From: Hormiphora californensis
Taxonomy: Eukaryota > Animalia > Ctenophora
DNA length: 64,000 nt
NCBI GenBank assembly: GCA_020137815.1
Contig: CM035361.1
Span: 930,001 to 994,000, forward strand
Direction: 5' to 3'
Under the pieces are notes generated by a model, which searched no databases, was not told where the DNA came from, and saw only the letters and a program-made list of their open reading frames with translations. How positions within the stretch are numbered: the first letter of the stretch is position 1; each line of letters begins with the position of its first letter. A program made the translations under genes and the position numbers. Shown here piece by piece: positions 3,114 to 64,000 of the stretch.

Positions 3114-6100
3114 TCATTTCCGCCTTGACACTTTCATCGGCTTACGACTGTTCCTCTCCTTACAAACAGGCATATGCCTCTTTCCGGCAGTTTCGTTAAA
3201 CCTAGTGAGAGATGGTTAGGGGAGAAATAAGTAGATAAAGAAAGATATAATTGAATGATTTAAGAAACAGCTAATAAATAAAGATATGGAAAAAAGAGTT
3301 AAGTTACAGTTGCCTTGTTTGAACAAAACAAAGTTACAGCTATTAGATAATAAAGATATTATTCTTCATCTATGGAAAAAAGGTAATATTTAAGAAATAG
3401 TAAGTTACCTTCTGTTGCAAGTAGGGCATGTTATGTAGTCTGGGTTTTCAACGGGAGGGGCAGCAACTCCCGTTCTGGCGCACTTTACTATCTGTTGGAA
3501 CTCATCTGTGGGAGAGGAGGAAGATGTATAAGGTGGGATAAGTTGGTTTTGGAGGGGAAGAGGGAGATGTGTATTAGATGGGATGGGGATATCATAGATA
3601 AGGTGAGATAGTTTTTAACTGGTCGAAGATGGATCGGGCACGCAACATGGTAGAGTAGCTAACTAACGGTTTGTTCAAATGATAGTTTCTATTCAGATTG
3701 CTCGAGAGTTATTACCGTGTGCATTTTTCCATCCCCTCGTTTTTGGTTTGTTATGTTCAACCTTATGCATCCCTCTAGCAACATATTGGGCGTAGTCCGT
3801 TCCTTCCGCTCTCTTCTTCGTTGTATCAAATACTTTCCGCTGCTTAGTAGCTGTCTTCTGTTATATAGAAGTGGTGTGGTGTTAGTTAACTTGGAATGTT
3901 TTTGGGCAAGAACAGAGAACAATTTCAGGCTCAACTCTTTTGATCAGTAGGTAAAGGCAGACTATAAAGTATTATTTAACATGTTCGTCCCCAAAAACGC
4001 GAGAAAGTGGCTCTGAGCTCGAGTGCACCTACGTTACAAATGTTTGTATGTTTAGCCAGTCTGTCCTCCCCAAACTTCCTCCCACAGATTCCACATGGTA
4101 CCAACCGAACTGGCATGACAGCATCCTCCCCTTCAATGGGTTGGGAGAAGATATCAGGGGCTGGGGGTGGGACTACTTCTGGGGGCGAGGTTTCCTGTAA
4201 TTAGAGGGTAGTGAGAGTTATTAGAATGAAATAAGTTAGTTAGTTGTAAGTGTTATTAGAAAGAGGTATTAGAGTTTAGAAATCAGTCAGTGGAGAGAAA
4301 ACAAATGGGAGGTGTGAGTGTGACAAATGATATGCGTGGTTTTAGAAAAATTGTGAAATCGGACAAACATTACAAAACATAATATTGAATACAAAAACAA
4401 AAAATCGACTGTTTGTGGTTCATTGAATTGTCTACTCCTTTTTTACCCTTGATGGTGGTTGATGTTGTTTAGTGGGCTGGGCTGGGGTACCACCTGCCCT
4501 TTTCTTTGCTGATTTCTCCATCTGCTTTTGGAACATTTTCTTTTGTGTTTCTTCCAGCCTAGAGAGGAAAACAATACAGGGTGTTCATTTTGGATCTTTA
4601 CAAGCGTTGGGCTTCACCCAGAAAACAGTTGACTAGATTAGGTCGTGAAACTTCTTACTTGGACTATTCTATACCCTCATTCAAGGTTCCTGGGGATTTT
4701 GGAGCTCTATTACCCCGGGAAGTGTGTTTTTGGCATCAAAACTACCAGAAGGAATTTTTTGCTGGTGCTGAGACTTTGCTAAAATGTTTTTTGGGTAATT
4801 TCTATGTCAATCCTAAAGTTTCATGGAGATTGGATGTGTTTTTCGGACTCAAAATTTCGTAAAAAGTGGCTGGAAAGGCTCGAAAACGGCTCAAAAACGG
4901 CAAAAATGGAATCTTTCCAGCCACTTTCTATGAAGTTTTGAGTCCGAAAAACACATCCAATCTCCATGAAACTTTAGGATTGACATAGAAATTACCCAAA
5001 AAACATTTTAGCAAAGTCTCAGCACCAGCAAAAAATTCCTTCTGGTAGTTTTGATGCCAAAAACACACTTCCCGGGGTACTAGAGCTCCAAAATCCCCAG
5101 GAACCTTGAATGAGGGTATAGAATAGTCCAAGTATGAAGTTTCACGACCTAATCTTGTCAACTGTTTTCTGGGTGAAGCCCAACGCTTGTAAAGATCCAA
5201 AATGAACACCGTGTATGTTTACTTTCAAGTCGAAATAACATAATTAATATTGCCGAGTTTGGGTATTATATGAACCGATAAAAAGATAACAAGTTTCCAG
5301 GGGGGGGGTACCTTTTTCGTTTTTGTTCCTCCAGCCTCTTCTTCTGTAACGCCTTCCTCTCCTGATCTTCCTCCTCTTGCATTCTCTCCAACCTCCTCTC
5401 TTCTTCAGCAATCTTCTTTTTTAGTGATTCCTCCTTCTTTCTGATCATCTCTCTCAGCCGGGCTTTCTCATCCACAGGGATGGGGTCTTGTTCTAGGAAT
5501 AGAGGAGAGTTATGGTCTTGTTCAGATAGGAATAACTCTAATTTCCATATAACTCTCCCGTATATATAGGAGAGTTATTATGGAAATTAAAGTCTCCTTC
5601 ACAGAATATAAAGCAGATTGGAGCTGTAGTATAGTTGACATTGTCTCTACACAAGCATGTTGACTACCATTCTTACCTTGGTTCTCTTCTACTGAAGGCT
5701 GCTTTTCAACCGGTTTCCGTTTTCTCTCTGACGCCGCTTTGTTGCTAGGTGTTTTAGCTGGGGTTTTGGTGGGACCGTTTGGAGTCTTTGTTGCTGCGTT
5801 GTTATAGCCGTTGTTAGGGGTAGGAGCGTTGATATAGCCGTTGCTAGGTGTCTTTGTCGGAGTGTTAGATGATGATATTGGTGGGATAACAGGTGTCTTA
5901 TTGAACTCACTAACTCCAGAACCTGGAAAAGAGACGGGTTGTTAGTTGTAAACAGAGAAATGAGACTTCAACTAGATCAGTACCATGATGCACGTCCAAA
6001 ATACTGGACTAAGTAACGCGGGAGGGGTTGTTATGTTCAACCGTCCTTTACAAAACTTGGTGCCAAAATTTGAATTTGTATCTGCATTTTGATGTCTCCT

Positions 6101-13100: not shown

Positions 13101-15472
13101 AACGACAGTGGTTTGATCTGGTATTGTCTGAGTTGTGCTGTTTTTGGCTGAATTCTGGGGGTTATGTAAACTTGTAGTGTCCCATATTGACCCTCAATCG
13201 ATCGAATCTTTACATCAAGGCGAGTTGTGTTCGCCTGACATCTGAAATAAAACGAGAATTTACAAAAAATCTCAAATTACGCTCCCGGGGAATACAGTCA
13301 ACTCTCAATCAATCCTCGATTAACATGCAACTAACTCTTGTATTCACTCCCGATAATCCAGTTGCTACTCAAAAGTATCTACTGACCGATATGTCGCCAG
13401 GATGAAATTCTTGTCCTCAGGATTGCAGGAGCTGTGTGAGACTACTGCTGAGTTCCTCTCAACATCCAACAGGTCAATCGGTACATCACACTGCGAGAGA
13501 GGGGTAACCACTAGGTGAGATTAACAACAAGAATAAGTAATAGTTCTCTGGAAAAGTTAAACGAAAAAGACGAGTCCAGTGATAAAGTATCCTGATCAGG
13601 ATATCACTGCAGTATTGATCACTGATTAAAATATCGGGCCGGTACCAACCTGAACTAAAACGTTCTCAATAGGCATTTGGATCTCGATAGAAAGAAGGTA
13701 GTTTGCATCTGTTGGACTCAGCACAAACTTGTCATTGACATGGAACTTTAGGACAGCGCTCACAGCAGAGTCAGAAGAGGCAGATTGTTGGTACTTTTCA
13801 CGCTCTGAGACAACTTGCCTGAAAGGAAACAATGAGTTAGGGACATTATTAGGGGACAACTTGCCAAACAGATAATACGGAATATTATTTGGAGATCAAA
13901 TAGATTTGGAACACCCAATACTAAGATATACTGAAACAGTACATCTGACTACTACTTGATAGTAAGAATAAGATATATATTAGATAGCTACCACTTCTCA
14001 CCGTTTCAGATCCTCTATTTCCCTTTTGAAATCCTCAACTTTAGTTTTAGTGCTACTACTGACTACTGCAGCCCCGGTGTGAGACCGTGCCTTGGGCTCT
14101 GTTGTCAGGCTTATCACATGTCCGGGGTAGGTTGATATTACCACATCTAGGAAGGGGGGAGTTAGTAACTTTATCACAGGTTCAATCTCTTATAATTATT
14201 GAAGTTTGTACATCTTGTACGGTCGTTGTTCAACTTAGTATACATATGAGTCACTGTTTTGTTCTAACTCTCCTTTACAACCGCTGCGGGGCACGATGGA
14301 TAGTGAAGGTCGAACAAAGCAACGAGTTACTGTTGCACCACCTACCTGGATGGCTTGTCGACCCAATAAGACCGGTACCCACTGCAGTTATTGTTTCTGA
14401 GACATTGGCTGACGTGATCTTTTTAGGTTGACCCTACAGAGAGAAGCAAGGTTGATCATATGAAGCAGATTGTGAACTGAAATTTGAAAATCGACAATAA
14501 AATTTAGAATCATAAATGTAATATCAATTACCTACCTCAGTTATAGAGTAGATTTCCACGTTTCCGTCATCCCGTGATATTACAACATCACTGATTCCAT
14601 CGCCAGTAATATCGTAAGAATCGATGGCAGTGATACCGCCCATACCTCCTGGGTTGGGAATCTCCCACCTGAGAAGGGGGGGTTTAGTTGTGTGAGGTGG
14701 GAAAAGTGGACAGCGATCAGGGTCTAACTAGGCAAAAAAGAAAGGGGTGGAGAAGTTAGAAAAGATGTGAGTGAGAGGTAAAGTACCTGTGACAGGGATT
14801 ATCTTTATTGATTGTAACAAGTCCTACCAGCCCATCCTGTGTTCCATAAAGTAGATTATTATGTCCATACCCACTCATAACATCATACAATGCCAGAGTT
14901 GAGGGCGCCCCTGGAACCTCCGCCTCGTACAGCAGATCATTCCCAGCAAGAACTCTGAGAACACGATCCTGACATCCAAGAACAGGAATCACCTCCTGAG
15001 CATCGTTTGGTATCCCACAAATATCATTTATTTTGTCAGATGACAGGTAGAAATGGGTGTCTTTGCAGTTGCGATACATGTTGTAAATGTAGTGTCCTGT
15101 GATGTGTAAATCTGCACCCCATACATGCATACTTTTGATCGAGTCCGATAGGTTTGTCTCAAACATGAGGAACTGCTTTCCTTTCTTTGTAAAACCTCGG
15201 ACTTCCGAGTTTGTCGCTAGGAAGATCTTTTCTCTGAGCGATCCAAGAGCACCGCCAAGCTCCACTCGGTCGATCCTATTTCCAGGGAGCGTCTTGAAAT
15301 CAACAACTGCATCACTTTTTCTAACTTGAAAGCACGTTAAGATGCCATTGTGATCACCAACCGCAATTCGTTGTTGGAGTTTCTTGCCCGGTGGGTTTGG
15401 GAGGACTTTGAGGCATTTATGAGACGTTGAGCCAACTGTCATGTGATCCACACGGGACAAACTGATCTCCAT
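10127..15472 (-). CDS. BBS7: Bardet-Biedl syndrome 7 protein (BBSome subunit), about 12 exons
   Basis: Exon 1 (15472-14787) [14 protein letters not shown]...[11 protein letters not shown]...[16 protein letters not shown]...[17 protein letters not shown] parallels the BBS7 N-terminus. Terminal exons give [23 protein letters not shown]|[11 protein letters not shown]...IDFFEIAAS*. Confidence 0.95.
11223..11974 (+). CDS. Nested secreted ~170-aa F-type lectin / F5/8 type C (discoidin)-like protein; exons 11223-11461, 11604-11766, 11864-11974; antisense within a BBS7 intron
   Basis: Signal-peptide-like [16 protein letters not shown], then ASQ...NVVDGN...WLKLNL...VGTVAIVNR...CG...C...MNLAEIFVY. All junctions are GT-AG and phase-compatible. 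Confidence 0.75.
12604..12732. repeat. 14-bp minisatellite (ATTACCAGCTACTA) x ~9 in a BBS7 intron next to a splice donor
   Basis: Direct inspection. Confidence 0.95.
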
Positions 15473-16668
15473 GATGATGTTTAACAAACGACTAGAAAAT
15501 CATCAGAAAATACATCAGGAAACTAAAAGTTTTGACATGGCGAAAATGAAAGTGTTTTCGGAAAATTCTAGTGCAAGCCCAAAAAAAATAAAATAAGGTG
15601 GAATTTTTGACTGGAGTTTTCAACTGTGGAAAAGATTCATACAAAAACATACAAAAATAATAATTTTACGTATTTCTATCCCGTGTCCAGTTTTTGAAAC
15701 TTGCAAAGTTCAAACCCCGTGAGGAAATACCGTAAAGAGCATTCATATTCTTTTAGTCTAGTCGTTGAACACTTCTTCAGTTTGGAAACTTCCAGATCAA
15801 CCTTTCTCACGCGCATGCGCCAAATCCTAAGACTTCAGTAATTCTTTGAATTGACATCTACATGTTTAGTGCCGGTAGGAAATTAGGATTGCAAATCACC
15901 CAATCAAAATCAAGAACGGCATCTCTTGAAACGCGGGCCGATTTAAAATAAAACGAAAATTCAAAGCATACTCGGAAATTTATCACGCAGACCGTGTGCC
16001 ACCGCGCGTAAAATCAGACAATTGTATGCTTGTCGCATTGGAAAATGATTCAATGCAAGGATCGTACAATGTTTATGCAGACCTTTCACGACCGCGATCA
16101 ATCGTGCACTGTTGACTCGTGCTGATCGGCTTGATAATTGTTGACAACCTCTCTCTTCTCTCCAACTCTCTCTCTCTCTCTGTTCCGCTGACTCTGGCTC
16201 CCTTGCTCGCCTCTGCTTCTCTCTTCCACCCTCTATGTCTTTTGTATTCCCTGACTCTCGTTGCCGTTGTCGTCGTTTGGTTATTACCATATATTCCAAA
16301 CTCCTATCCATTACCTAATTTCCTTCCGATCTTAACCACCTTCATTATGTTTGTATAATGAAAAAACAGGATAAGTGTAGTTAAATCAATAGAGGATGGT
16401 TGGAGGTGTTACATATCATGAAGAGGAAGTTGAGGATAATTCGTTTAATTGAGAGCTTTATCATTTTGTATGAAAACAGGTAAGTGAGCTCCCGGCTGGA
16501 TCGAGGTGTAAGTGACGTATCATGAGAGACTGATATTCATAAATTGGCTTACTTTCTCGATGGAGAATCAGGGAAGGAGCTGTCCAACAAGGGCCCCCCA
16601 CTGACAGTGGACGTTCTTGAATTACGTGTATGCTAATGGCTTTTTTCTAGTCCTGAATGTGCGTTGTG

Positions 16669-20661: not shown

Positions 20662-20819
20662 TACTACCTCAATCAAGCTTCTCCAATTCTGCTTCTGTCC
20701 ACTCTCACTTCAATGCGTACGTCAGTATTCCCCACTGACCGGCTTCCTTCATTCATAGCTGTGACATGCATAACTAGAACTGTGACGTGTGTATGTGTGT
20801 GTGTTTATAACTGTGTCAA

Positions 20820-23800
20820 TATTCTCTAATGGTTACAAAGTGTTCAGACTGGATCGCTGTGCTGCTACCCATCCCTTTGACCCCGATCAACCCAGGAAGT
20901 TTAGGGCCAACGGTGGTGGGGTGCTCATAGCGCATAGGGAAGACCTTTCTCTTTCTAGTTATAAGTTTGACCGCTTTAGTACCCAGGCAGAGATTCTCAG
21001 TGTTGTTTTCAACTGTAGTACCAACATCAGTTTCTGTATAACCACCTTTTACCGTGTTAGTTCGTTAACATCTGTTAACCTGTCCAATGTTAAAAGTTAT
21101 TTGTTGAATCTGGCCAAAACCAGGAGTTTCAAGCGGCATTTCTTAGTCGGTGACTTCAACCTACCAGGGATCTCCTGGCCCGATGGCACCACTAAGAATG
21201 CTCTTGAAAGTGAGTTCGTTGACTTTCTCTGTGGTGAACTAGGTCATTCCCAGATGGTTATGTCCCCTACACATGTCTCTGGTAACACATTAGATTTGTT
21301 GTTCACCAACTGCCCGGATCTCGTTGGTCAGTTGTCAGTTTGTGATGTGAATGAGGTGTGTTGTTCTGATCACTACGGGCTGAGATTTAATATAAATCTA
21401 AGTTTCAACCGTAGTAGCCGTCCTGCCAGATTTCGTTATGATTTTAGAAAGTTCGACCCCATTCCACTGAATGTCGCCCTTGGCATGGTGAACTGGGATC
21501 GGCTTATCAGTGTTAATATCAACGATTCCTGGGAGAATGTGAGGAGAGTGATTGTTAGTCTGTGTGAGAAGTACATCCCCAAGAAGCGTGTGAGAAACCC
21601 TTTCACCCCGTCGTGGCATGATGATCGTGATGTGGTGAGAGCTAGAAACAGGAAGGAGACCCTGAGATCTCGTCTCAGTGGCAACCCCTCTCCTGAGAAT
21701 AAGACAGCTTATTATGTGGCTAGAAAAAACCTAAAGAGGGTTATCTCATCTAGAATGAACGACTATTTTGATGTTGATTCTGGGTGTGGTATCACCAAGA
21801 GGTTCTGGTCTCATATTAAGTTGTCCAGTAAGACCCTGCGGATCCCCGAGAGTGTGTTTAGTGACGGTGTGTATAGGTCTGATCCCTCTGGTAAGGCGAA
21901 CCTGTTCAACAACCATCTTGTCTCACATTTCACTGCTCCTAGTAGCTACGATATTGAGGTAGATGTGTCTGAGAGCTCAGTGTTCTTTACCTATAACGAA
22001 GTGTATACTGCCCTTGCATCTATTGATAGTTCTAAGGCCTGTGGGGATGATGGGATACCTGGCAGAGTCCTCAAAAACTGTGCTGGGTCTCTCACTTACC
22101 CCCTCTGGTTACTGTATAACATTTGTGCGAGGGAGGGTACATTTCCCGACGCTTGGAAGCTTGCCTCAATAGTACCTGTCTTTAAAAAAGGAGATCGGAG
22201 AGACGTGGCTAACTATAGACCCATATCTCTACTTTCTCTTGTTTCTAAGGTCCTAGAGAGGCTTGTCAAGCCTAGGATTCTAGATATATGTTCCCCTCAC
22301 CTAGACCCCCGTCAGCATGGTTTTCTAGGAGGTAGATCCTGTACCACACAACTTATTCCATTCACCCACAATGTGGCAGAAGCATTAGACGCGAGGGCAA
22401 GGGTAGATGTTGTATACTTTGACTTCTCCCGTGCCTTCGATTCTTGTAATCATGATCTGATACTGAGTAAGCTGAAGCTGGGTTTTGGTGTGGGTGGTCA
22501 GTTGCTGGGACTCATTAGGAGCTACCTGAAGGATAGATGTCAGAAAGTTGTTATTGATGGTGGGAGCTCTGATATCCTTCCGGTGGCCTCTGGTGTACCC
22601 CAGGGATCCATCTTAGGTCCTGTATTGTTCGTCCTGTTTATTAATGATATATTTAACTTAACGTCACCTGGGACTAACATCTCCCTGTACGCTGATGACA
22701 CCAAGATATGGCGCAGAATAGACAGTATGAGTGATCATTTTGAACTTCAGAAGTCAATTGATGCCTTGTATGATTGGTCAATTCGGAGCATGATGCGGTT
22801 TCATCCAGCTAAGTGCCAGGTTCTGAGTGTCATCAGCCCTACCACACAGTCATCTAACCCTTTCAGTAGCCTCCCCTTCCACAAGTACTTCTACTCTCTT
22901 GGAGGGGTGGCTCTGGAGTATGTCACTAACCAACGTGACCTGGGTATTGTCATCAACAGCACTTTAGATTTCAACTCCCACTGTGACTCTATTATCACAT
23001 CCATGTCGTTTAAGTTCAACCTGCTCCGCAGGACTTGTTATTTCCTCAGTAGGAGTTCTTGTAAGAGAACACTGTATCTGTCCATGGTGAGGTCGTTAGT
23101 TGAGCACTGTAACCAGGTCTGGTCGTGTGTGAATGCTGGTAGTCTGAGGTCACTTGAACTGCTGCAAAAACGGGTTGTGAAATGGATCAGAAATGAACCA
23201 CTTGCCTCGTATACAAATGACGAGTATGTGGATCATCTGCTGAGTTTGAACCTTCTCCCGTTTAAGCAGCTGTTCGAGTTTTACGATCTTAGATTGTTTT
23301 ACAAGATTGTGTATGGTATGATTAGCATCACTGTCCCTCAGTACATTCAACCGATCAACCCCAGCACACTCAGAGCCACCCGTCAGAATAGTGACATTCG
23401 TGAGGGTCGTGACAAAACGACTCTAGTGTTCATGTCTGCCTACCACACGAACACTCATAGGGCTCTTAGGACTAGCTTTTTTCACCGAGTCACTGATTTG
23501 TGGAATAAGCTGCCCTACTCTATCAGACAGAGTGATTCACTGACTGAGTTTGTCCGTCTCACTAAGAAACACCTGATTGAGTCCATTGTACCCAGTAACG
23601 TTCTCTAGTACACAATACACCTCCCCTCCCCCTACCCCTCCCCCTACCCCTCCCCACTCTGTTCATGTTCACAGTCCGAGATATGAGGCCTGCTCCACCC
23701 TCGGGATAGCCGCCCAGTCCACCAGGTATTTTCTACCCCCTCTCTTTAGTACTTCAATTACCGTGACGAGGCTTTTGCAGTATTTTACTAGCCTTCTATC

Positions 23801-24012: not shown

Positions 24013-25297
24013 CCCTAAAACAAATGAAATTTTCATTTGTTATTGGGGATATTTCTTTGAAAAGGGAGCAAGTTTACGGGTGTGGTTGTACCATAGTTTT
24101 GTGTTAGGACTATCCACTATAACTGTGTTACTGTTATTGTAAACTTAAATTGTAAATTGTTTTTTCCATTTCAGTAACTGAAGGAGCTGCTAGTGCAAAA
24201 CTATATGTGGAGGACTACAAAATATATATATAGAGGACTACAAGTGCAAGTGCAGTACAGTGCAAGGGGATCGCTAGTGTCTAATGAAGCCGGTTTATCA
24301 ATTATTGGCGTAATGACGTGGCTGCTCTGACTTACGATGACATTGAATCTGGTATTAATAAAGATTTGACTCTACAAAGACCATAAAAAGGCCATGGACT
24401 CTATATTCTAAAATACTCGAAGCTTATAAGAAGAGTCATACGACATACGGGCTGTGATTGTGGCTGTGATGAGCTGTCGAGGTGAGAGGACATGTAGATT
24501 TCATGGGTGTAAAGTAACTGTGAAAGTTGTGTTTTCTCCTTTTGGTCGGGATACGAACTGAATAGGGTTTTATTGTAGAACAACGCTACGTTCTACAATA
24601 TGATATCAAAATTAAAACCCGTCGAATACTCTAGTACTCATTTCATAAAGCTGGTCAGTGGTCCAGATCCGGCCGGAAGGAGAAAACACAGCTTCCTCGT
24701 TAATTATGCGGCTAATCAACAATTTTCTCTCAATAGCTGAGAAACTGATACTGATAGTTCCCATAATTTATGTGAAAAATGCGGATCTGTGTGTTATATT
24801 TATAATTATCAACTGCCATGCTATTCATTATCATATTTTAAATTTTGTTACCTTGTTTATAAAACTAAAAGATGTTTATAATTTGACTCCCTACACTGGC
24901 GAAAAAAGGAAGATGCTACTGGTTCAAAGTTTCAAACATTGTTTGGTAATGTCATGTCATGTTTTTGTTCATCAGCAAGCTGCCGTCTGCCCTGGTAAAT
25001 TGACGCCAGGGCGCGAATGTTTGTCTGTTTGTCTGTGACTTGATGGGAGAAACGGCTGACGCGGAGATCAACTCTGTGGAAATTTGGCGCGAGATTTCAC
25101 GGCGCGCACGTCGTATGAAAGGTCGAGCACAAGGTCTGACCAGTCACGTGACCACTGCGCGTCGTTGAACCGCCGTTGAGCCGCAGCGCGAAAAAAAGTG
25201 CTGACATTGACCGGACCTTGTGCTCGACCTTGTGCTCGACCTTCATGTGCTCGACCTGAACATTTCCGAGTATGCTCATTTCATTTCAAAAGACGCT

Positions 25298-25359
25298 TTT
25301 GGCATGCGCTGCAGACCCCAAGTGCGCGCGTTTTCCACGGCCTGTAGCATAGGCCAAAA
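25298..25359. repeat. ~60-bp imperfect hairpin element also present in the 5' region of the LeuRS gene
   Basis: TTTGGCATGCGCTGCAGACCCCAAGTGCGCGCGTTTTCCACGGC-CTGTAGCATAGGCCAAA, identical to 38386-38429 + 38585-38602. Confidence 0.85.
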
Positions 25360-25495
25360 GACGCTTCGGTTCAAAAAGTTAAAGAAGATTTTGTTTCCTT
25401 TTCAGTGCTCTCGGCTCTCGCCTTCACACCGGCTTGCTGCTGAGCTTTCATCTTTGCTCTGGATTATTTCTCTATTTTGTACTCAATCTATAGAA

Positions 25496-26774
25496 ATGTC
25501 AAACAATGTGGAAATGTTAAACGGGACGGATGGTAAGGGAGACGAAGAGGAGGGAGAGGACTTCCCGACACTATCAGAAATGCTAGAAACTCTCCAAGCC
25601 CCAGAGTGGATATTCTACGTCATCATATCAGCAGTTTTATGTTTCTTCATAATAGGACTTGATATTAGAACGATCTTACAGCACAAAAAGTTTTCTACCC
25701 GTCACCCTCTTCAGTGCCAAACAACACTTGGTATTCTCCAGGTTAGACCGATCACGAATTTGATGTTACCTGCGTCCTGCAGTTGTCATGAAGTTCATGA
25801 CATGAACGGCGATCATTACACTACCAATAGCACGCAGATTAATGTCAATTTTGCTGTCAACGTCATTTAATCGTTTATCATCTTTATCATCTTTGACAGA
25901 TGTCAATAGCCTGTCAATTGTTATCCCTTGAAATGACTAAATATCCAATTATTTTCAGGTATACCCTATATACGCAATAATGCACGCAGCTGGTCTTATC
26001 ATCCCTAAAATGACAGAGCTCTGTTTGTACATCGCAGAAACATATGAAGCTCTAACCTTCCTGTTCTTCCTACGTCTCGTTCTGACATATCTGGGAGGAA
26101 AGAAAAGTACCAAAGCGACACTGAAAGGGGACCATGTCCATGTTAATGTGTTTCCACTGTGCTGTCTTTTCTGCTTTCCATCATTCAAGTTTACCAGAAA
26201 GTACTTCATTTTCTGTGAGTGGCTCGTCTACTCCTACGTCATTTTCTCCGTTGTCTTTGGGTTTGTGGAAATGGCTAACATTCTAGATCAAAGCCATGAT
26301 TATCCCGCAAACGTGGTTGAAGCGGATATCAGCCTTGCATACAACATTACTTCTCTAGCGCTCCTAGTAGTTGCAATTTACGGCCTATCAGGGATCTACC
26401 ACAGCGCTGAGGAGTACCTAAAGCACAGGGCGATTATCAAAAAGTTCCTAGTTTATAAGGTGTTTGTAACTCTTGCAAAGATTGAGGAGCTCCTGGTTGG
26501 GTCTCTAGTTAGTAAGGAGATAATCCATGAGGAGTGGAGGTTCAATAAAGTGTTCACAGCTGCTCTCCGTGCTCGGTTCATGGTGTCATTCCTGATTGTG
26601 GTCGAGGCGGCATTCTTCTTTCCCCTGGCGTGTCGGTGGTATGGTACTGAGGATTATGTGGCGTTGGAGGATGAAGGGAATCTGGCTAAAGATTTGGATG
26701 TGGTGATTGATGGGTTGGCAGAGATGGACAGGAATGGATGCCCACAGTCATTGGAGGGAGATAACAAGGTTTAG
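25496..26774 (+). CDS. Organic solute transporter alpha (SLC51A)/TMEM184-family multipass membrane protein, ~353 aa; exons 25496-25741 and 25959-26774
   Basis: Phase-0 GT-AG join gives ILQ|VYPIYAIMH...IPK...ETYEALTFLFFLRLVLTYLGG, then a Cys cluster PLCCLFCFP and KKF..K, with multiple hydrophobic helices typical of the Solute_trans_a family. Confidence 0.8.
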
Positions 26775-27754: not shown

Positions 27755-36250
<8,496 letters not shown>

Positions 36251-36846
36251 ATATGAAGGAAATGACCAAATATGGAAGAATGATGATCCAGCTTTGAGTA
36301 CAACTTCAAGTTCAAGTTTTGAGCTTTACGATTAATATATTTACTCCATTTCCTATGGACTATTTGTTTTCTCACAAATCATTTGTTGTCACACATTCTC
36401 ACAAACCACTTCATATTATTGTCTCTGGGAGACTCTCTCGCTGGTCGGGGGATTTATAGGTCTGCGGGATCAGGAATTAGGATCTTATGTCCGGGTAGAC
36501 TGGTAGAGAAAGATATTAAACAACTACAGTATTTGTATGGTTATTGTTACGGCTTTCAGGGCAGGGCTCTTTTTACTAGGATACGTACTACGTAGACGTA
36601 GGGCAACGACTTGAAGATCTACTTATTCTACTTCTGATACTGAAATAGTTTGTTTGTTTGTTTGTTTGTGATTGCTGCGTCTGGAGGATGACAAATAGTT
36701 CTATAAAATTATATGAGTGTGAACTGTGAAGGTACTATTTAATACTGACGGCCGGCTATTATTTGATAAGTTAATTTACAATCAGTCTTTTTTGGGTTAA
36801 TATTTGTTTTGTGGCTATTTGTGTATTTAATCAATTATTAATTATA

Positions 36847-36908: not shown

Positions 36909-37385
36909 TTAGTGGCTTATTCTAGCAGCTGTGACGAGCATACGACAGTATATTTGTGTTTATTTGACGGATTCCTATCAAAATTATTAAATATAAATTG
37001 ATGTTTTTCATTTCGAGGCCAGGTGGATACTGGAGTCCAGAACATGATGTTCAGACTTCAGTATATTGAGGTCTGTGTAGACGTGTTGGCACTGTACTTG
37101 GCGTTTGGCAATGGCAATCAAGTGATTCATTCCCTTTCGTGATTAATCTGTCAAAGTATTGACTATTGACCTGAATCATCTGAATTCTGAATCACTTGAT
37201 TGCCCAACACTACACCGACACGACACTGTAGTAACTGCATCTTCGGCCTGGCGTAAGACTGCTCACTGAGAGCCGAGAGGTGCCTGCAGGATTGGAATAT
37301 GTCACTGACATTGTCAGCGAGACGGACGTCGGACGTGACGTCGTGACACTGAAAATGCCATGCCCATGGCCATTTACTTCATGTA

Positions 37386-38021
37386 CACGGTGTTCATTTT
37401 GGATCTTTACAAGCGTTGGGCTTCACCCAGAAAAAAGTTGACAAAATTAGCTTATGAAACTTCATACTTGGACTATTCTATACCCTCATTCAAGGTTCCT
37501 GGTCGTTTCGGAGCTCTAGCACCCCGGGAAGTATGTTTTTGCCATCAAAACTACCAGAAGGAATTTTTTGCTGGTGCTGAGACTTTGCTAAAATGTTTTT
37601 TGGGTATTTTCTATGTCAAACCCAAAGTTTTATGATGATTGGATGTGTTTTTCGGTCTCAGAATTTCGAAAAAAGTGGCTGGAATGACTCTAAACGGCTC
37701 AAAAATTGACATTTTAGAGTCTTTCCAGCCACTTTTTTCGAAAATCTGAGACCGAAAAACACATCCAATCATCATAAAACTTTGGGTTTGACATAGAAAA
37801 TACCCAAAAAACATTTTAACAAAGTCTCAGCACCAGCAAAAAATTCCTTCTGGTAGTTTTGATGCCAAAAACACACTTCCCGGGGTGCTAGAGCTCCGAA
37901 ACCACCAGGAACCTTGAATGAGGGTATAGAATAGTCCAAGTATGAAGTTTCATAAGCTAATTTTGTCAACTTTTTTCTGGGTGAAGCCCAACGCTTGTAA
38001 AGATCCAAAATGAACACCCTG
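37386..38021. mobile_element. Foldback MITE family A copy 2 (636 bp), TA duplication; termini indicate opposite orientation to copy 1
   Basis: TA|CACGGTGTTCATTTTGG...CCAAAATGAACACCCTG|TA. Confidence 0.92.
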
Positions 38022-38436
38022 TACTACTACCATACTACAAAGACTCCATCCAGCTCACTCAGCTCAGTCTTTCAGACTCCTGGACTGGGACAGTGGACCT
38101 GAGCTGCACCGGGTTCCCCGGCCTACTGGACCAGTAGGCCGGGGTATAGGTGGAGGTCTAGAGATTTACTTGGAAGCATACACTAGTGAGAGCTTAGACC
38201 TGACTATGAGACATAACATGAGCTTCTTTCAATGGTTTCATCTCAAGAGACCGCGATGGCATATATTTGTAAAGTTGACTGCGCAGTAAAGCCGCGCGAA
38301 ATTTCGAGCTTTTAATGCATGCGCGTTGTAAAAACTGAGCTCATATCAGGTGAGTTGCAAAAGTCAAGGCTGTTCACAGTTTTTGTTTGGCATGCGCTGC
38401 AGACCCCAAGTGCGCGCGTTTTCCACGGCTTCTAGG

Positions 38437-38580
38437 TAGTGGAAGCTCTTACGGTATTCCCACGACCGTGGGAAAAGAGAGATAGATAGAAATACTAAGA
38501 GAGAGAAATTTATCTCTCTTAGTATTTCTATCTATCTCTCTTTTCCCACGACCGTGGGAATACCGTAAGAGCTTCCACTA
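38437..38580. mobile_element. Palindromic MITE family D (TAGTGGAAGCTCTTACGG termini); 60-bp sister copy at 63689-63748
   Basis: Near-perfect 144-bp palindrome; the same 18-bp termini recur at 63689-63748. Confidence 0.88.
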
Positions 38581-38840
38581 AGGGCCTGTAGCATAGGCCA
38601 AAGTTTTTGTCCCAAAAAAGAGGCTGTTCACAGTTTTTTTACAAAAAAGTTGGAACCTCTTGTAATTTTACGTTTCTGCCATCCATCTGTGGATTTTGTT
38701 AACTTAAGACATCAAGCTTTGCCTATCTTCAACTAATATGTTATTTTTAATAAACTTTCAATATTTTTTCCCCCATTATTTCCATAGTTTGATGCACAGT
38801 TGACCCAGTGGCATCGCTCGGCACACGACTCCTTAGAACC

Positions 38841-41800
38841 ATGTCCACAGCAAAGCGTGATTTTCTCATTGGCATTGAGAAGAAGTATCAGGGATTATGG
38901 GAGCAAGAAAAGTTGTATGAAGGGGTCGTAAAAGACCCTGAAGAACCGAAATACTTCGCCACAATCCCTTACCCGTACATGAATGGCAGGCTACATTTGG
39001 GTCACTGTTTCACCATCACAAAAGTTGACTATGCTACGAGATATCAGCGTCTGAAAGGGAAGAACACCCTCTTCCCTTTTGCATACCATTGCACAGGCAT
39101 GCCAATCAAGGCATGTGCTGATAAGCTCAAATACGAGATGGCAACCTTTGGATGTCCTCCAGTTTTCCCCGAAGAGGTAGCTGCGGAGGTTGTCGAGGAA
39201 GAGATAGACTTCGAGAAAGATCCAGCGGCTTACGAAAAGAAAAAGGGGAAAATGCAGATGAAGTTCGGTGACACAAAGTACCAGTGGTCGATCATGGAAG
39301 GAATGGGAATCCCTAAAACAGAGATCCCAAAGTTTGCAGACACGGCCTACTGGTTGACTTACTTCCCGCCCCACTGCATGGACGACCTGAAGGGAATGGG
39401 TCTGGGAGCTGACTGGAGGAGAGGATTTATCACAACCGATGTTAACCCTTACTACGACTCCTTTGTCAGGTGGCATTTTAACACCCTGAAAGCAAAGAAC
39501 AAGATCAAGTTTGGTAAGCGTTACTCGGTATTCTCACCCAAAGACAAACAGCCCTGCATGGACCACGACAGAAAATCTGGTGAGGGAGTTGGCCCTCAGG
39601 AGTACACCGGTATCAAAATCAAACTTCATTCGCCCCTTCCATCTGCCCTAAAGTCTCTGGAAGGTAGAGATGTCTTCCTTGTTGCTGCCACCCTCCGACC
39701 AGAAACAATGTACGGACAAACCAACTGTTTCGTGAAGGATGACATCGACTACATTGCGTTTGATGCCCTAAATAACGAAGTATTTGTAACCACGATGAGG
39801 GCTGCAAGGAACATGGCGTACCAGGAATTAACCCCTGATTATGGAAAGGTGAATGTGCTGGTAAAGCTGACTGGGTCGGATCTAATGGGAGCTGCGATTA
39901 AAGCACCACGTGCTCAGTTTGAGAAGTTGTACGTGCTCCCAATGATGGGTGTCAAGCCGAACAAGGGAACTGGAATTGTGACGAGTGTGCCCGGTGACGC
40001 ACCGGATGATTATGCCGCACTGATGGACCTAAAGAATAAGCAGCCGCTGAGGGAGAAGTATGGGATTACGGACGATATGGTGAAGTTTGATCCTGTTCCC
40101 ATTATCAATGTTCCCGGTTTTGGAGATTTGTGTGCCGTGATGGCATGTGAACAGATGAAAGTGAACTCCCAAAATGACAAAGACAAGCTGTTGTTAGCGA
40201 AGGAGAAATGTTACAGAAAAGGTTTTGATGAAGGAGTATTGTTGGTTGGCAACCACAAGGGAGAGATGGTGAAGATTGCAAAGCCTCTGATCAAGGAGGA
40301 AATGGTGGCGTGTGGCGAGGCATTCAAGTACCAAGAACCGGAGAAGGAGATTATCTCACGGTCGGGTGATGAGTGTGTCATTGCCCTTTGTGACCAGTGG
40401 TTCCTGACCTACGGAGAGGAGGGTTGGAAAGCGAAGACGGATGAATGTCTAAAGAATGTTGAGTGTTACTTTGAGGATACTCGACAGGCGTTTGAACGTA
40501 CCATGGCTTGGCTTCATGAGCATGCATGTTCCAGGAGTTTCGGACTTGGAACAAAGCTGCCTTGGGATGAGCAATGGTTGGTTGAATCACTGTCTGATAG
40601 TACCATCTACATGGCTTACTACACCGTGGCTCACTATCTTCAGGGCGATATCTATGGATCTACACCGGGAGCACTCGAGATCAAACCTGAGCAGATGACC
40701 CACGAAGTATGGGACTACATTTACTTCAAATCCGCTGCATACCCATCCAATAGTACTCTCTCCAAGGACACTCTGGAGACTCTACGACGGGAATTCCAGT
40801 ATTGGTACCCGGTTGATCTGAGGTCGTCCGGGAAAGATCTCGTCCAGAACCATCTGACCTACTGGCTGTACAACCACACGGCTGTGTGGTCTGACGAGCC
40901 GGAGATGTGGCCAAGAAGTGTCCGGGCTAATGGCCATCTGCTGATGGATGGAGAGAAAATGAGTAAATCTCTGGGGAACATTATCTCCCTCGCCCAGGGA
41001 GTTCAGATCTACTCCGCTGATGGAATGAGGCTGGCTCTAGCTGATGCTGGTGATGTCCTTGAGGATGCAAACTTCAACACGAAACAAGCCAACGCTGGAA
41101 TCCTCCGACTCCACACTTTCGCAGAGTGGGTCACGGAGATTGTCGCTCAACTGCCAACAATGCGAACTGGTCCTACCACATCCCAGTTGTACGATAGGAT
41201 CTTTGCCAACGACATCAACAGAGCACTTTCCCAGACTGATGTCCACTTTGGTAATACCATGTTTAGGGAGGGACTAAAAACAGGATTTTATGAGTTCCTA
41301 AGTGCCAGGGACAGGTACAAGGAGCTAGCAGCGGCCGGTCTTGGAATGCACCGTGGCCTGGTTGAGAGGTACCTCCGAGCTCAGATCATTATTCTGACCC
41401 CGATCTGTCCGCACATGTGTGATTACCTGTGGAGGGAGGTGATGGGAGAGAGTAGTAGTGTGGTGGGCGCAGCATGGCCAGAGGCTGGACCTGTCGATGA
41501 TTCCCTGACCAAGGCTTCGGAGCATTTGATGGAGTGTGTCCATGATTTCAGGTAAGAGAGATGTGAAAACCTTACTTTATTGGGAATACCGGAATCTTAC
41601 GTTATTTTGCGTTTACCGAGGCATGATTTGGGTTCGAAATTCAGTTTCTTTAAATAACTTTCCTCCAGGATCAAGTTGATTAATTACACGAAGCCAAACA
41701 CTAAAAAGGGTAAGGCCATCACCCCCAATGAGCCTCCTAACAGTATTACAGTTATCTACGCTAATGACTACCCCGCTTGGCAGGTTAGTGTTTGATGGGA

Positions 41801-43389
41801 AGCATGACATTTTCACCTCAAAATTCCACCTTGAGGGTGACACCTAATTAAGGAAGTGTCAAACTTCGTGTGTTGACCACTATTTATAGAAATGATTTGA
41901 CATTCCAATTTAACAGAACTTGACCCCCATTTTATATTAATTTCACCACCCCTACATAGGAGAAAACGCTAGACTACCTAAAATCAACATACAACGCAGC
42001 TGAAAACTCCTTCCCGGATAATAAGGCGCTCCTGCAACACCTCAAAACCATCCCAGAAGTGAAGCCGTTCATGAAGAAGCTGATGCCTTTCGTGGCTTAT
42101 GTGAAGGAGCAGGTCGCTGTGAAAGGTAGGTTAGTTTGTGAAGGAGCAGGTCGCTGTGAAAGGTAAGTTACTTAACCGTAACTTAACTTACCGTAAGTGG
42201 GTAAAAGTTTCTGTCAAAGTCGTGAAAGGTACAAGTTGTTATGGGTGTGTCACCGTGCGACCTGTGTGTGTGTGTGTGAGTTTGTATACTTTGTAACACG
42301 CTGCGTAATATCCTGTTTGTTGTACCTGCACTGTCCACGCTTGCTATTCTGTGGCAAATACTGTGGAATGTTCTTGTAGCTGAAGATTTAGTCATATTCA
42401 TGGTTTAGTGAAGACAATAATTGGACTAATTAGCATATTAGAGGGGGTGTAATTAAGGATTTCTCACCAACACCACAGAATGTAGAAATTGTTGTCAAGT
42501 AACACCAATCACCATTCGATAGTGATCTACACAGTGCAATGTAGTATTACATTCTCCACTCTACACAATGTAGTATCCGCCCTTCACAATGTGGAAGATT
42601 ACACACACACTCTCCCAGGTGTCTCAGTTCTGGAGTCCCACCTGTCCTTCAGTGAACGAGATCTGTTCCTCCAAAACAAGGAGTACATCCTCCGCTCTCT
42701 GGATCTGGATGACATTCAACTAGTAGAATCAGCCAGCCACCCTGACCAGAAACTGGTAGCTGATGTGTGTCCTGGGAAGCCAATGTGTAAATTTGAGAAG
42801 AGATCTCTCAACCCTACTACCTCATCCAAGATGACGAGGGTTGTTAATATCCAGCCGTGTACCCCTCATTTTTCTCTGGATGTTCCTGTTTTTGATGCTG
42901 ATACGGTGGAGGATGTGATAGCGAGGATGAAGAGGATGGATAGGAAATTGAAAACGAAACAAGTCACTCTCTACAGGTAATTTTCCCCCAAGTTTAGCAT
43001 TTTGTAGGAAACAAAACCTTGCACCTCGAATCTCGATATATGCCGTGTATTCTTACGTACATGTTCATACTACAGCTACAGTAATTGGACACTATTATTT
43101 CAAAATTATTTCAAACTTGATACCCCTCCCCGCCCTTGCCTGGCTAGACTGTGTTTCGGGCACACGATGTAAAGGGAGGGTTAGAACATTTAACAACCCC
43201 GCCCAAGGTTATCCATCCGCCAGGTATGTTGACTCAGCTAAGGGACCCCGCCAGATGCTCGCATTTGATCAGCCCATGATGTGGAACAAGAGGCAACTTG
43301 ATCTAGACAGCACTGTGGAGTATGAGGAGGCTGGGTTGAAGGTGGGGGGCAAACAGCTCGGTGACACGATATGTTATACCGTCAGTTAG
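38841..43389 (+). CDS. LARS1: Cytosolic (eukaryote/archaeal-type) leucyl-tRNA synthetase; exons 38841-41551, 41669-41783, 41960-42125, 42619-42976, 43224-43389
   Basis: PYPYMNGRLHLGH (HIGH motif), CP1 editing motifs ATLRPET and KGTGIVTSVP, ESLSDSTIYMAYY, GKDLVQNHL, KMSKS. Downstream exons join in phase (YPAWQ, KKLMPFV, CPGKP). Confidence 0.97.
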
Positions 43390-51478: not shown

Positions 51479-52429
51479 ATGAAAAAGCTGGGTGCATTAG
51501 TTTTGGTAGTTAAGATGGATACTGTACGTGAGGAGAGTGACCTGACACTTGAGCTAAATGGGAACATCATTTCCCCCATGGACATGGCTGGAAAATCGGG
51601 AAAGACCCTTGGTATCTATCTTGATGAACAAATGGATATGAAACGTCAAATCTCCATGGTCAAGAGGAATGCTGGAGTTACTATGAGGAACCTCTGGCAG
51701 ATCCGCCGATTCATTGATAAACCTCTACGTCTGATGCTTGCCTCCCAGCTGGTCATATCCAAAGTGGACTATTGCAATGCCCTGTATTTCAACCTGCCGG
51801 CCTCTACCATCAAGCCGCTGAAAGGACTAATGAATCAAGTAATAAGATACATCCATGGAGTCAGAGAGAGGAAAGTTGATCTGGACCCCTTCTACCGTGA
51901 TTCCCATATCCTTACGATTGAGAAGAGGATTTTCTTCAAAATCTGTTTACTAGGATACAAGATCTATTATGGAAGTGCCCCTCAGTACCTTCAGGATCTA
52001 GTGGAACATGATGAAAATACTGCAGTGCAAAAGTCTACTCGTCAGAGCTGTAAAGTAGACCATTACAAGTTAAAGCTACCTTCTGGAAATGTGAAAGTGA
52101 GCAAACTGGGTAAAAGGAGAATATCCCAATATCTCCCCATGTCTGGAACAACCTACCGGAGAACCTTAGAGACGCACCTTCAGAGGACTCCTTCCGTATT
52201 CGCCTGAAGACCTACCTGTTCGATGCTACTGTTACCTTCTCTGAAAGACCTTATTTGGTTTTCGACGTCAGTCTTTAATAATTTCTTTTCGGTTATTCAT
52301 TAGTCCCCGTTTCTCACACGGTCACCCCTGCTGCTGTCACATATTTCTTTATAATCTAAGATACTTTTCAGTTTATCATTTTTGTTATTATTTTTTCTGA
52401 TTATACTTGTCACCCACAGTCACCAAGTG
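51479..52429 (+). mobile_element. 5'-truncated L2/CR1-group LINE remnant (C-terminal end of ORF2 + 3' UTR); the UTR resumes at 53737-~53762 after a nested insertion
   Basis: LGIYLD...ISKVDYCNAL...HILTIEKRIFFKICLLGYK...APQYL is typical of the post-RT region of L2-type LINEs. There is an apparent frameshift near 52140, and AATAAA at ~53746. Confidence 0.75.
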
Positions 52430-63022: not shown

Positions 63023-64000
63023 TTAAATGTATAATTGATAGCACATGCCTGGTTGATTCCGATATCCTACCGATGCGTTGTCGAACACGGAATAAAAATA
63101 AACCTGGTCCACCGTTTTACTCCAGGTAGTCATACAGTCGCCTTCAGTAAATGCTGTTCTGACAACCTATTGGAGTTAGTTGTTACTAAATAAATTCTCA
63201 AACAAACATATTCAATGAATATGTGAATAATTATTATTCATTTTGCGATTGTGGTGATATCATAATCCGTGACAGTTCGATAATACTAATAGTATATGAA
63301 CAAGCTAAGGCACTCTTTCGTTCCTTTTTTCACAAACCTGATCGCCATTGCAAGTTATGATAAACTCGTCTGCAGTTTTCTGGAACGTCCAAATTCTCAC
63401 GGTCTCCTCGGTACTCGGCTGGATGGTAAAATTCCCTTTAGTGACACATTTCAACAAAGAGTACTGCATCAGTGGCGGTGTGATAAATATATCAATTATC
63501 CCAGTCTGCGTTCCTCCGCTCAGGGAGGTTAATCTCAGGAGAGATTTGTTTGTCTTGGTAAGCACTTGGAAGGCTGGAGACGAAAAGTCAGAGATGGAGA
63601 TGAAGGATCTTTGAACTGGGTGCCAGGCTGAAAGAGAGATCTGGATGTTAGTTACTCTTCGGATTTTTATGGATTGTTATGCAGATTGTAGTGGAAGCTC
63701 TTACGGTTTTTTCCACGGTGTGCGACAAAACCGTAAGAGCTTCCACTATTGGACTTAAACTTACAATCATTTAGAAAGTACTCAGTGGATGCATCATCGA
63801 TAGTTATTAGAAAATCCAAGGCCGCCAAAGTGGCACTCCATTCATTTACACAGCTATCCGGGTACGTGAGTTGGTAAAATTGATCACCATTCAACTCTAT
63901 CACAAAAGAGTTTGATGAAGGAGTAAACTCCCAGGTGTGTACTGTGTTCATGGCGATAGCCTTACCAAGCGACACAAAATTTTCATGGCAGCCTCCCAAT
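63023..64000 (-). CDS. Partial gene with tandem ~110-130-aa extracellular-type domains; exons >64000-63765, 63627-63338, 63166-~63023
   Basis: Two homologous repeats: HTWEFTP...IELNG...CVNEWS...DFL..DDASTEYF and RIWTFQKT...IITCNG...CMTTWS...YFY..DNASVGYR. Joins are GT-AG and phase-compatible; the 3' end is uncertain. Confidence 0.65.

Follow-up and report, generated by a model that had tools for sequence, protein, structure and literature searches.

The window analysed here, a stretch of 64,000 nucleotides (64 kb) of Hormiphora californensis DNA (contig CM035361.1, positions 930,001 to 994,000), contains LARS1, the ctenophore gene for the cytosolic-type leucyl-tRNA synthetase (LeuRS). A GTG and ten further codons stand in frame before its ATG at position 38841. 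We propose that leaky near-cognate initiation at GUG 38808 (AUU in the lobate relatives) yields a predicted mitochondrial LeuRS isoform, and that the AUG at 38841 gives the cytosolic enzyme; on the evidence below we hold this reading at about even chances. The features on which it depends are the following (window positions):

38841 to 43389, plus strand: LARS1 coding sequence, exons 38841-41551, 41669-41783, 41960-42125, 42619-42976 and 43224-43389.
38808 to 38840, plus strand: the GTG and the ten codons after it (VASLGTRLLRT), predicted to act as near-cognate start and as presequence.
38790 to 38792, plus strand: stop codon TGA in the main frame, ahead of the extension, as read from the genome sequence.
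38792 to 38803, plus strand: out-of-frame upstream open reading frame (uORF) of three codons and a stop, in weak context, at +5 after the acceptor.
38765 to 38787, plus strand: polypyrimidine tract and first AG, the probable spliced-leader acceptor (junction 38787/38788).

A first-pass annotation of this DNA had named the gene as cytosolic LeuRS, and this was borne out. The protein read from ATG 38841 is 77% identical to the LeuRS of Bolinopsis microptera and 56-58% identical to bilaterian cytosolic LeuRS, it contains the class I synthetase and anticodon-binding domains of Pfam, and in the tree it falls within a clade of 14 rows with 100/100 support, together with named ctenophore proteins. 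RNA evidence came from runs X1-X7 and X11, which were aligned out of 11 listed; X11 is from a relative at about 85% identity. The four GT-AG introns were confirmed by RNA contigs from runs X1-X4. The donor region of intron 3 (42126-42170) contains a local duplication of about 30 nt with a possible second donor near 42164, and the RNA contigs use the first. The main ATG has an A at -3, and the NCBI LeuRS models of B. microptera (XP_063692555.1) and Mnemiopsis leidyi (KAL5272613.1) both begin at MST.

The 5' end of the mRNA was recovered from two relatives. The contig of X11 aligns to 38806-38912, differing over 107 positions by 16 mismatches and 4 gaps, and carries 30 loose 5' letters in front: 12 nt that agree fully with the 3' end of the ctenophore spliced leader as published, then 18 nt. 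These 18 nt beyond the leader place the junction at 38788, right behind the first AG. The leader sequence was taken from PMC8527503, which reports the leader on 56% of long reads. A motif scan found one locus in metagenome contigs, the transcript L001, and 0 loci in prokaryote genomes. L001 is a lobate mRNA whose protein is 97% identical to B. microptera LeuRS, and it consists of the leader end, 45 nt and the ATG. In both recovered 5' ends the leader is joined at the counterpart of AG 38787, and the upstream exon described below is present in neither. Both belong to relatives; for the window, we infer that the mRNA is also leader-spliced at 38787/38788, which would leave a 5' untranslated region (UTR) of 53 nt. 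AG 38787 is the strongest acceptor of the region, with 85% pyrimidines before it and no AG in the preceding 60 nt, whereas pyrimidines make up 60% before AG 38799 and 50% before AG 38808; the GC content changes at AG 38787 from 25% before to 55% after. At low sampling, a single leader junction was seen in each relative.

Downstream of this acceptor, neither the window nor L001 has an in-frame AUG until the main ATG is reached. The stretch from TGA 38790 to ATG 38841 offers a single in-frame near-cognate codon, GTG 38808, and no stop lies between GTG and ATG. In L001, an ATT at position 26 (codon -10) has A at -3 and G at +4, and two later near-cognate codons are present. Alanine comes directly after the GTG of the window (GTG-GCA), after the ATT of L001 (ATT-GCT) and after Ile -10 in the protein-only lobate records. 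The residues further upstream of the near-cognate codon include acidic or helix-breaking ones in the window, L001 and the Mnemiopsis-like records. An upstream ATG (uATG) with T at -3 is found at +5 past the leader junction in the window, X11 and L001 (where the uORF spans 15-35), in differing frames, and the residue pairs at -14/-13 of the protein-only records (Tyr-Gly, His-Glu) would be compatible with the same uATG. A frameshift linking the uORF to the main frame was considered and rejected, the offsets being different (-49 versus -41 nt). RNA folding of the 5' region is ordinary (z of 0.47 in the window and -1.04 in L001), and therefore a structure-assisted start is not supported.

The recurrence of a presequence-like, in-frame extension in other ctenophores, which would be expected from the first-pass annotation, was observed in L001 and in all six database proteins that reach upstream. 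In the window, L001 and these six proteins alike, the frame is open over the 9-11 codons that precede the ATG, and these encode a basic stretch lacking acidic residues. L001 reads IAVRRILGSL in frame before MST. Among the 30 cluster members listed, six have residues before MST and the motif is present in every one of them, as IAVKRILSAV, IAVKRILSSV (four Mnemiopsis-like members) or MFQRVLSSV. Upstream sequence is visible in three of the eight ctenophore-type clusters, the other five giving none, and the one further ctenophore N-terminus that a wider search brought, P0144, begins at MST. The lobate-type extensions share 6-9 of 10 residues, with bodies 88-91% identical, and the extension of P0135, in which the start codon is called at -9, shares 3-5 of 9 residues with them, with a body identity of 79-82%. 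Fourfold sites of the window and L001 are identical at 82 of 277 positions, and therefore their silent sequence is near-independent.

The presequence properties were judged by simple measures of our own (charge, acidic residues and hydrophobic moment). Five forms consisting of the extension plus the native MSTAKR were scored; their net charge is +3 or +4 and their hydrophobic moment 0.60-0.71, and acidic residues are absent from all of them, whereas the short form has a moment of 0.42 and two acidic residues in 18. A presequence is defined in PMC12895284 as 10-70 residues, amphipathic, basic, rich in Ser/Thr and without acidic residues, and by these measures the composition of the extension fits that definition. 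The combination of a near-cognate codon, G at +4, an open frame, charge and moment arose 5 times among 20000 shuffles and twice among 20000 random segments of the window; for L001, the counts were 17 and 11 per 20000. The first-pass annotation had also pointed to an R-3-like cleavage site. An Arg at -2, a position of the R-2/R-3 type for the mitochondrial processing peptidase, is indeed present in the window and X11, but the site is absent from the lobate extensions, in which the last Arg is at -6. A hydrophobic-x-basic-hydrophobic-hydrophobic motif, of the Tom20 type, is present in the four relatives scored (4/4) and absent in the window.

Several observations weigh against near-cognate initiation at GUG 38808. 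The context of the GTG is middling, with C at -3 (and G at +4), and the extension is short for a presequence, being close to the lower limit of 10-70 residues. Between the window and the lobate extensions only 1 of 9-10 residues is identical without shifting and the best BLOSUM sum is 3-8, so that the properties alone match. The extensions known from gene calls are selected for open frames, and the criteria of the comparison with shuffles and random segments were set after the data had been seen. The GTG of X11 is not directly seen, because 6 of its 16 differences are not itemised. No reads of the window's own species cover 38156-38930, the intron repeat excepted, so that here the junction is predicted and TGA 38790 is known from the genome sequence. 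Finally, two observations would also fit a different origin of the start. The alignment of X11 starts precisely at CAG 38806-38808, as would be expected of a conserved acceptor no less than of a conserved start. In L001, the protein-only lobate records and apparently X11, no stop closes the frame between the extension and the acceptor, so that the start could come from an upstream AUG exon in these sequences.

Such an exon was at the centre of the first-pass annotation, in which the choice among acceptors joined to it was the switch between the two forms of the enzyme. The features concerned are:

38315 to 38349, plus strand: candidate upstream 5' exon predicted from sequence, its start open-ended, with ATGs at 38315 and 38319, both in weak context.
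38347 to 38355, plus strand: consensus splice donor CAG/GTGAGT, the sole exact copy in the window.
38798 to 38808, plus strand: two weaker downstream AGs (ending at 38799 and 38808), in frame with the candidate exon, putative acceptors.
38350 to 38787, plus strand: intron or outron of 438 nt, enlarged by nested small repeat elements.
38386 to 38605, no strand assigned: mini-element of about 60 bp interrupted by a 144-bp hairpin element (38437-38580); a second copy of the mini-element lies at 25298-25358.

All the positions given for this model were confirmed, namely ATG 38319 reading MRVVKTELIS, the donor, the AGs at 38787, 38799 and 38808, the stop on joining to 38788, the in-frame joins and the GTG at 38808. 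The list of features was incomplete, since it missed the AGs at 38836 (before the ATG and out of frame with the exon) and 38850 (just past the ATG and in frame), the ATG at 38315, whose frame stops within the candidate exon, and the uATG at 38792. The 9-mer of the donor occurs once in the 64 kb versus 0.55 copies expected (both strands, whole window). An exact match is uncommon in the approximately 760 nt upstream of the acceptor, and hence the donor at 38349/38350 is likely real; 38315-38349 is, by its sequence, a candidate exon. No transcript spliced at this donor was found in the 8 RNA runs aligned, and none of these runs has depth over 38156-38369, a missing cover that is no evidence against the exon: X1-X4 have no depth at 38156-38369 or 38584-39011, and X5-X7 have none at the 5' end. 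The possibility that the candidate exon is a leader RNA gene was rejected, the 3' motif of the leader being absent there. Immediately upstream, at 38294-38309, are GC-rich near-palindromes including GCGCGAAA, which may mark a promoter; GCGCGAAA resembles an E2F-type site.

In the version of this model that we weighed, a minor cis-spliced mRNA joining the AUG exon to AG 38808 or 38799 would encode the mitochondrial form, and the leader-spliced mRNA the cytosolic one. In addition to the donor that is unique in the window and the two observations just given (the start of the X11 block at what is also this acceptor, and the open frames of the relatives), it is favoured by the joins of 38349 to 38800 and to 38809, which are both in frame; the form joined at 38809, whose 27 residues include a single acidic one and sum to a net charge of +5, is a passable presequence. 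There is precedent in human and zebrafish synthetases, which employ alternative splicing in this way (PMC7600831). However, the exon was present in 0 of the 2 recovered 5' ends, which are leader-spliced at the first AG, and the junction phase is 1 in the window versus 0 in L001. Joining to the strongest AG, 38787, gives a stop at once, and therefore the spliceosome must skip 12 or 21 nt to reach the weak AGs at 38799 or 38808. Both ATGs of the exon have T at -3, and in P0135 the start codon is called at -9 itself. Acceptor choice from the upstream exon was thus not upheld as the switch and this route is, in our judgement, unlikely, whereas the GTG start, which the first-pass annotation had offered as a secondary option, fits best.

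A second alternative is that the stretch is an untranslated 5' UTR kept for RNA-level reasons (trans-splicing, the uORF), that LeuRS is cytosolic, and that either charged tRNA-Leu or enzyme without a presequence is imported. Import of charged tRNA has been proposed for Toxoplasma (PMC8554336). The lack of sequence similarity between the window and lobate extensions would agree with this alternative, and part of the conservation could be due to the uORF, which in L001 overlaps with the extension in its first half. The amino acid exchanges among the lobates are nevertheless conservative (K/R, S/A/G, V/L/I) and continue beyond the stop of the uORF. In a simulation of neutral change at 50% divergence, the lobate similarity was reached in 59, 21 and 1321 of 20000 trials; at 30% divergence it was reached in 1958, 1012 and 9394 of 20000 (5-47%), which, for a divergence that low, again counts against the near-cognate start. 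In X11, where the six listed changes of the coding part are all silent (6/6), the codon for the Arg at -2 of the extension has changed at two bases (AGA to CGC) and still encodes Arg, Thr -1 became Ser, and the frame is intact despite four single-base indels (two insertions and two deletions). In addition, ctenophores keep the mitochondrial PheRS (PMC4558845), which implies charging inside the organelle. A purely untranslated role is for these reasons quite improbable.

We regard as very unlikely that the extension is translated for another purpose (another location, stability or translational control): it is very short and a conserved cleavage motif is absent, but its composition matches the presequence definition and the lineage has no reported mitochondrial LeuRS. 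Least probable is alternative leader addition, with the leader at 38787 giving the long form and the leader at AG 38836 a cytosol-only mRNA: although the distance from AG 38836 to the ATG is 4 nt, a single AG is likewise found within the extension of L001 and the Trypanosoma IleRS provides a precedent (PMC3273800), X11 lacks AG 38836 through a change of A to C at 38835, a junction of this kind did not appear (one junction per relative at low sampling), and the long mRNA, having no in-frame AUG, would still need a near-cognate start.

Under the proposed near-cognate initiation, scanning ribosomes would pass the weak uAUG of a single leader-spliced mRNA (junction 38787/38788); a minority of them would start at GUG (AUU in the lobates), and most would start at AUG 38841 and produce the cytosolic enzyme. 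The 10-11 added residues and the native MSTAKR would form an amphipathic presequence of 16-17 residues. The imported LeuRS would charge imported cytosolic tRNA-Leu, replacing the lost mitochondrial LeuRS; as a speculation, the balance between the long and the short form may be controlled by the uORF. The loss of mitochondrial tRNAs and of most mitochondrial synthetases in ctenophores, on which the first-pass annotation relied, is in agreement with PMC4558845, which describes ctenophores as having no mitochondrial tRNA genes and as retaining only two mitochondrial aminoacyl-tRNA synthetases, all the others being lost; the reported absence of a mitochondrial LeuRS (LARS2) rests on that paper.

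If this is right, the NCBI LeuRS models of B. microptera and M. leidyi lack an isoform. The way in which ctenophore mitochondria charge imported tRNAs is assumed rather than demonstrated in the literature consulted; the proposal names one codon and one peptide of 10-11 residues, and makes import of the enzyme separable from import of charged tRNA. A wider and doubtful generalisation is that nearly the whole mitochondrial synthetase set was replaced by way of near-cognate presequences of about 10 residues in the UTRs left after trans-splicing, with an uAUG setting the ratio and LeuRS as the first case; if true, a phylum-wide set of isoforms has been missed by annotation. Among the papers listed by searches of a library with few subscription papers, none was found that deals with targeting signals of ctenophore synthetases or with their initiation at non-AUG codons, and ctenophores are not mentioned in PMC12718117.

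An 18-bp direct repeat (38367-38384 and 38621-38638) flanks the region of the mini-element within the 438-nt intron or outron; the 60-bp mini-element has short terminal inverted repeats, and the ends of the 144-bp hairpin element recur near 63.7 kb (63688-63748). Upstream of LARS1, a 642-bp element at 37383-38024 has inverted arms of 312 nt that are 98% complementary and resembles a miniature inverted-repeat transposon; a copy of this element, with 90% identity, lies at 4575-5215. A LINE-type endonuclease/reverse-transcriptase frame, open over 940 codons, lies at 20786-23608 on the plus strand, and a shorter fragment of a seemingly similar kind at 51479-52207. The neighbouring genes include an exon of BBS7 (14756-15499, minus strand, Pfam E value 1.6e-80), a gene of the organic solute transporter alpha family (25211-26774, plus strand) with the 60-bp mini-element in its 5' region, and a multi-exon coiled-coil gene (33620-36260) on the plus strand, the same as LARS1, which ends about 2 kb upstream of it.

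The mechanism proposed here is already known from fungi, the same enzyme included, and the locus is predicted to work like a near-cognate dual-localised synthetase, a group of which it is a candidate member. The closest likeness is with the LeuRS of Cryptococcus neoformans (CNAG_06123, DualNCC; PMC7049704), in which the same enzyme is encoded by one cytosolic-type gene and the mitochondrial LeuRS has been lost. In that gene a near-cognate ACG or AUU stands in frame before a predicted targeting sequence and the main AUG, as do the GTG of the window and the ATT of L001. It differs in being fungal and in having the support of ribosome profiling, whereas in the ctenophore there are no reported mitochondrial tRNA genes, the UTR is leader-spliced and of 45-53 nt, an uAUG is present at +5, the extension has 10-11 residues and the case is made from sequence. 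ALA1 and GRS1 of Saccharomyces cerevisiae are alike in that one mRNA gives a mitochondrial isoform from an upstream non-AUG start, at ACG codons in the yeast AlaRS and with an addition of 23 residues in the yeast GlyRS (PMC7600831); they are other enzymes, with a longer extension, experimentally proven and without trans-splicing. The IleRS of Trypanosoma brucei shares with the ctenophore gene the trans-splicing of a leader, the import of all mitochondrial tRNAs and the use of one gene for both compartments (PMC3273800, PMC7600831, PMC6658472). There, two leader acceptors give a long and a short mRNA, whereas here one acceptor was seen and L001 has no in-frame upstream AUG. The human LysRS and the zebrafish HisRS (PMC7600831) are dual synthetases encoded by single genes in animals and come closest to the model of the first-pass annotation; they rely on an exon that brings its own AUG and is alternatively cis-spliced, whereas no cis-spliced 5' exon was observed here.

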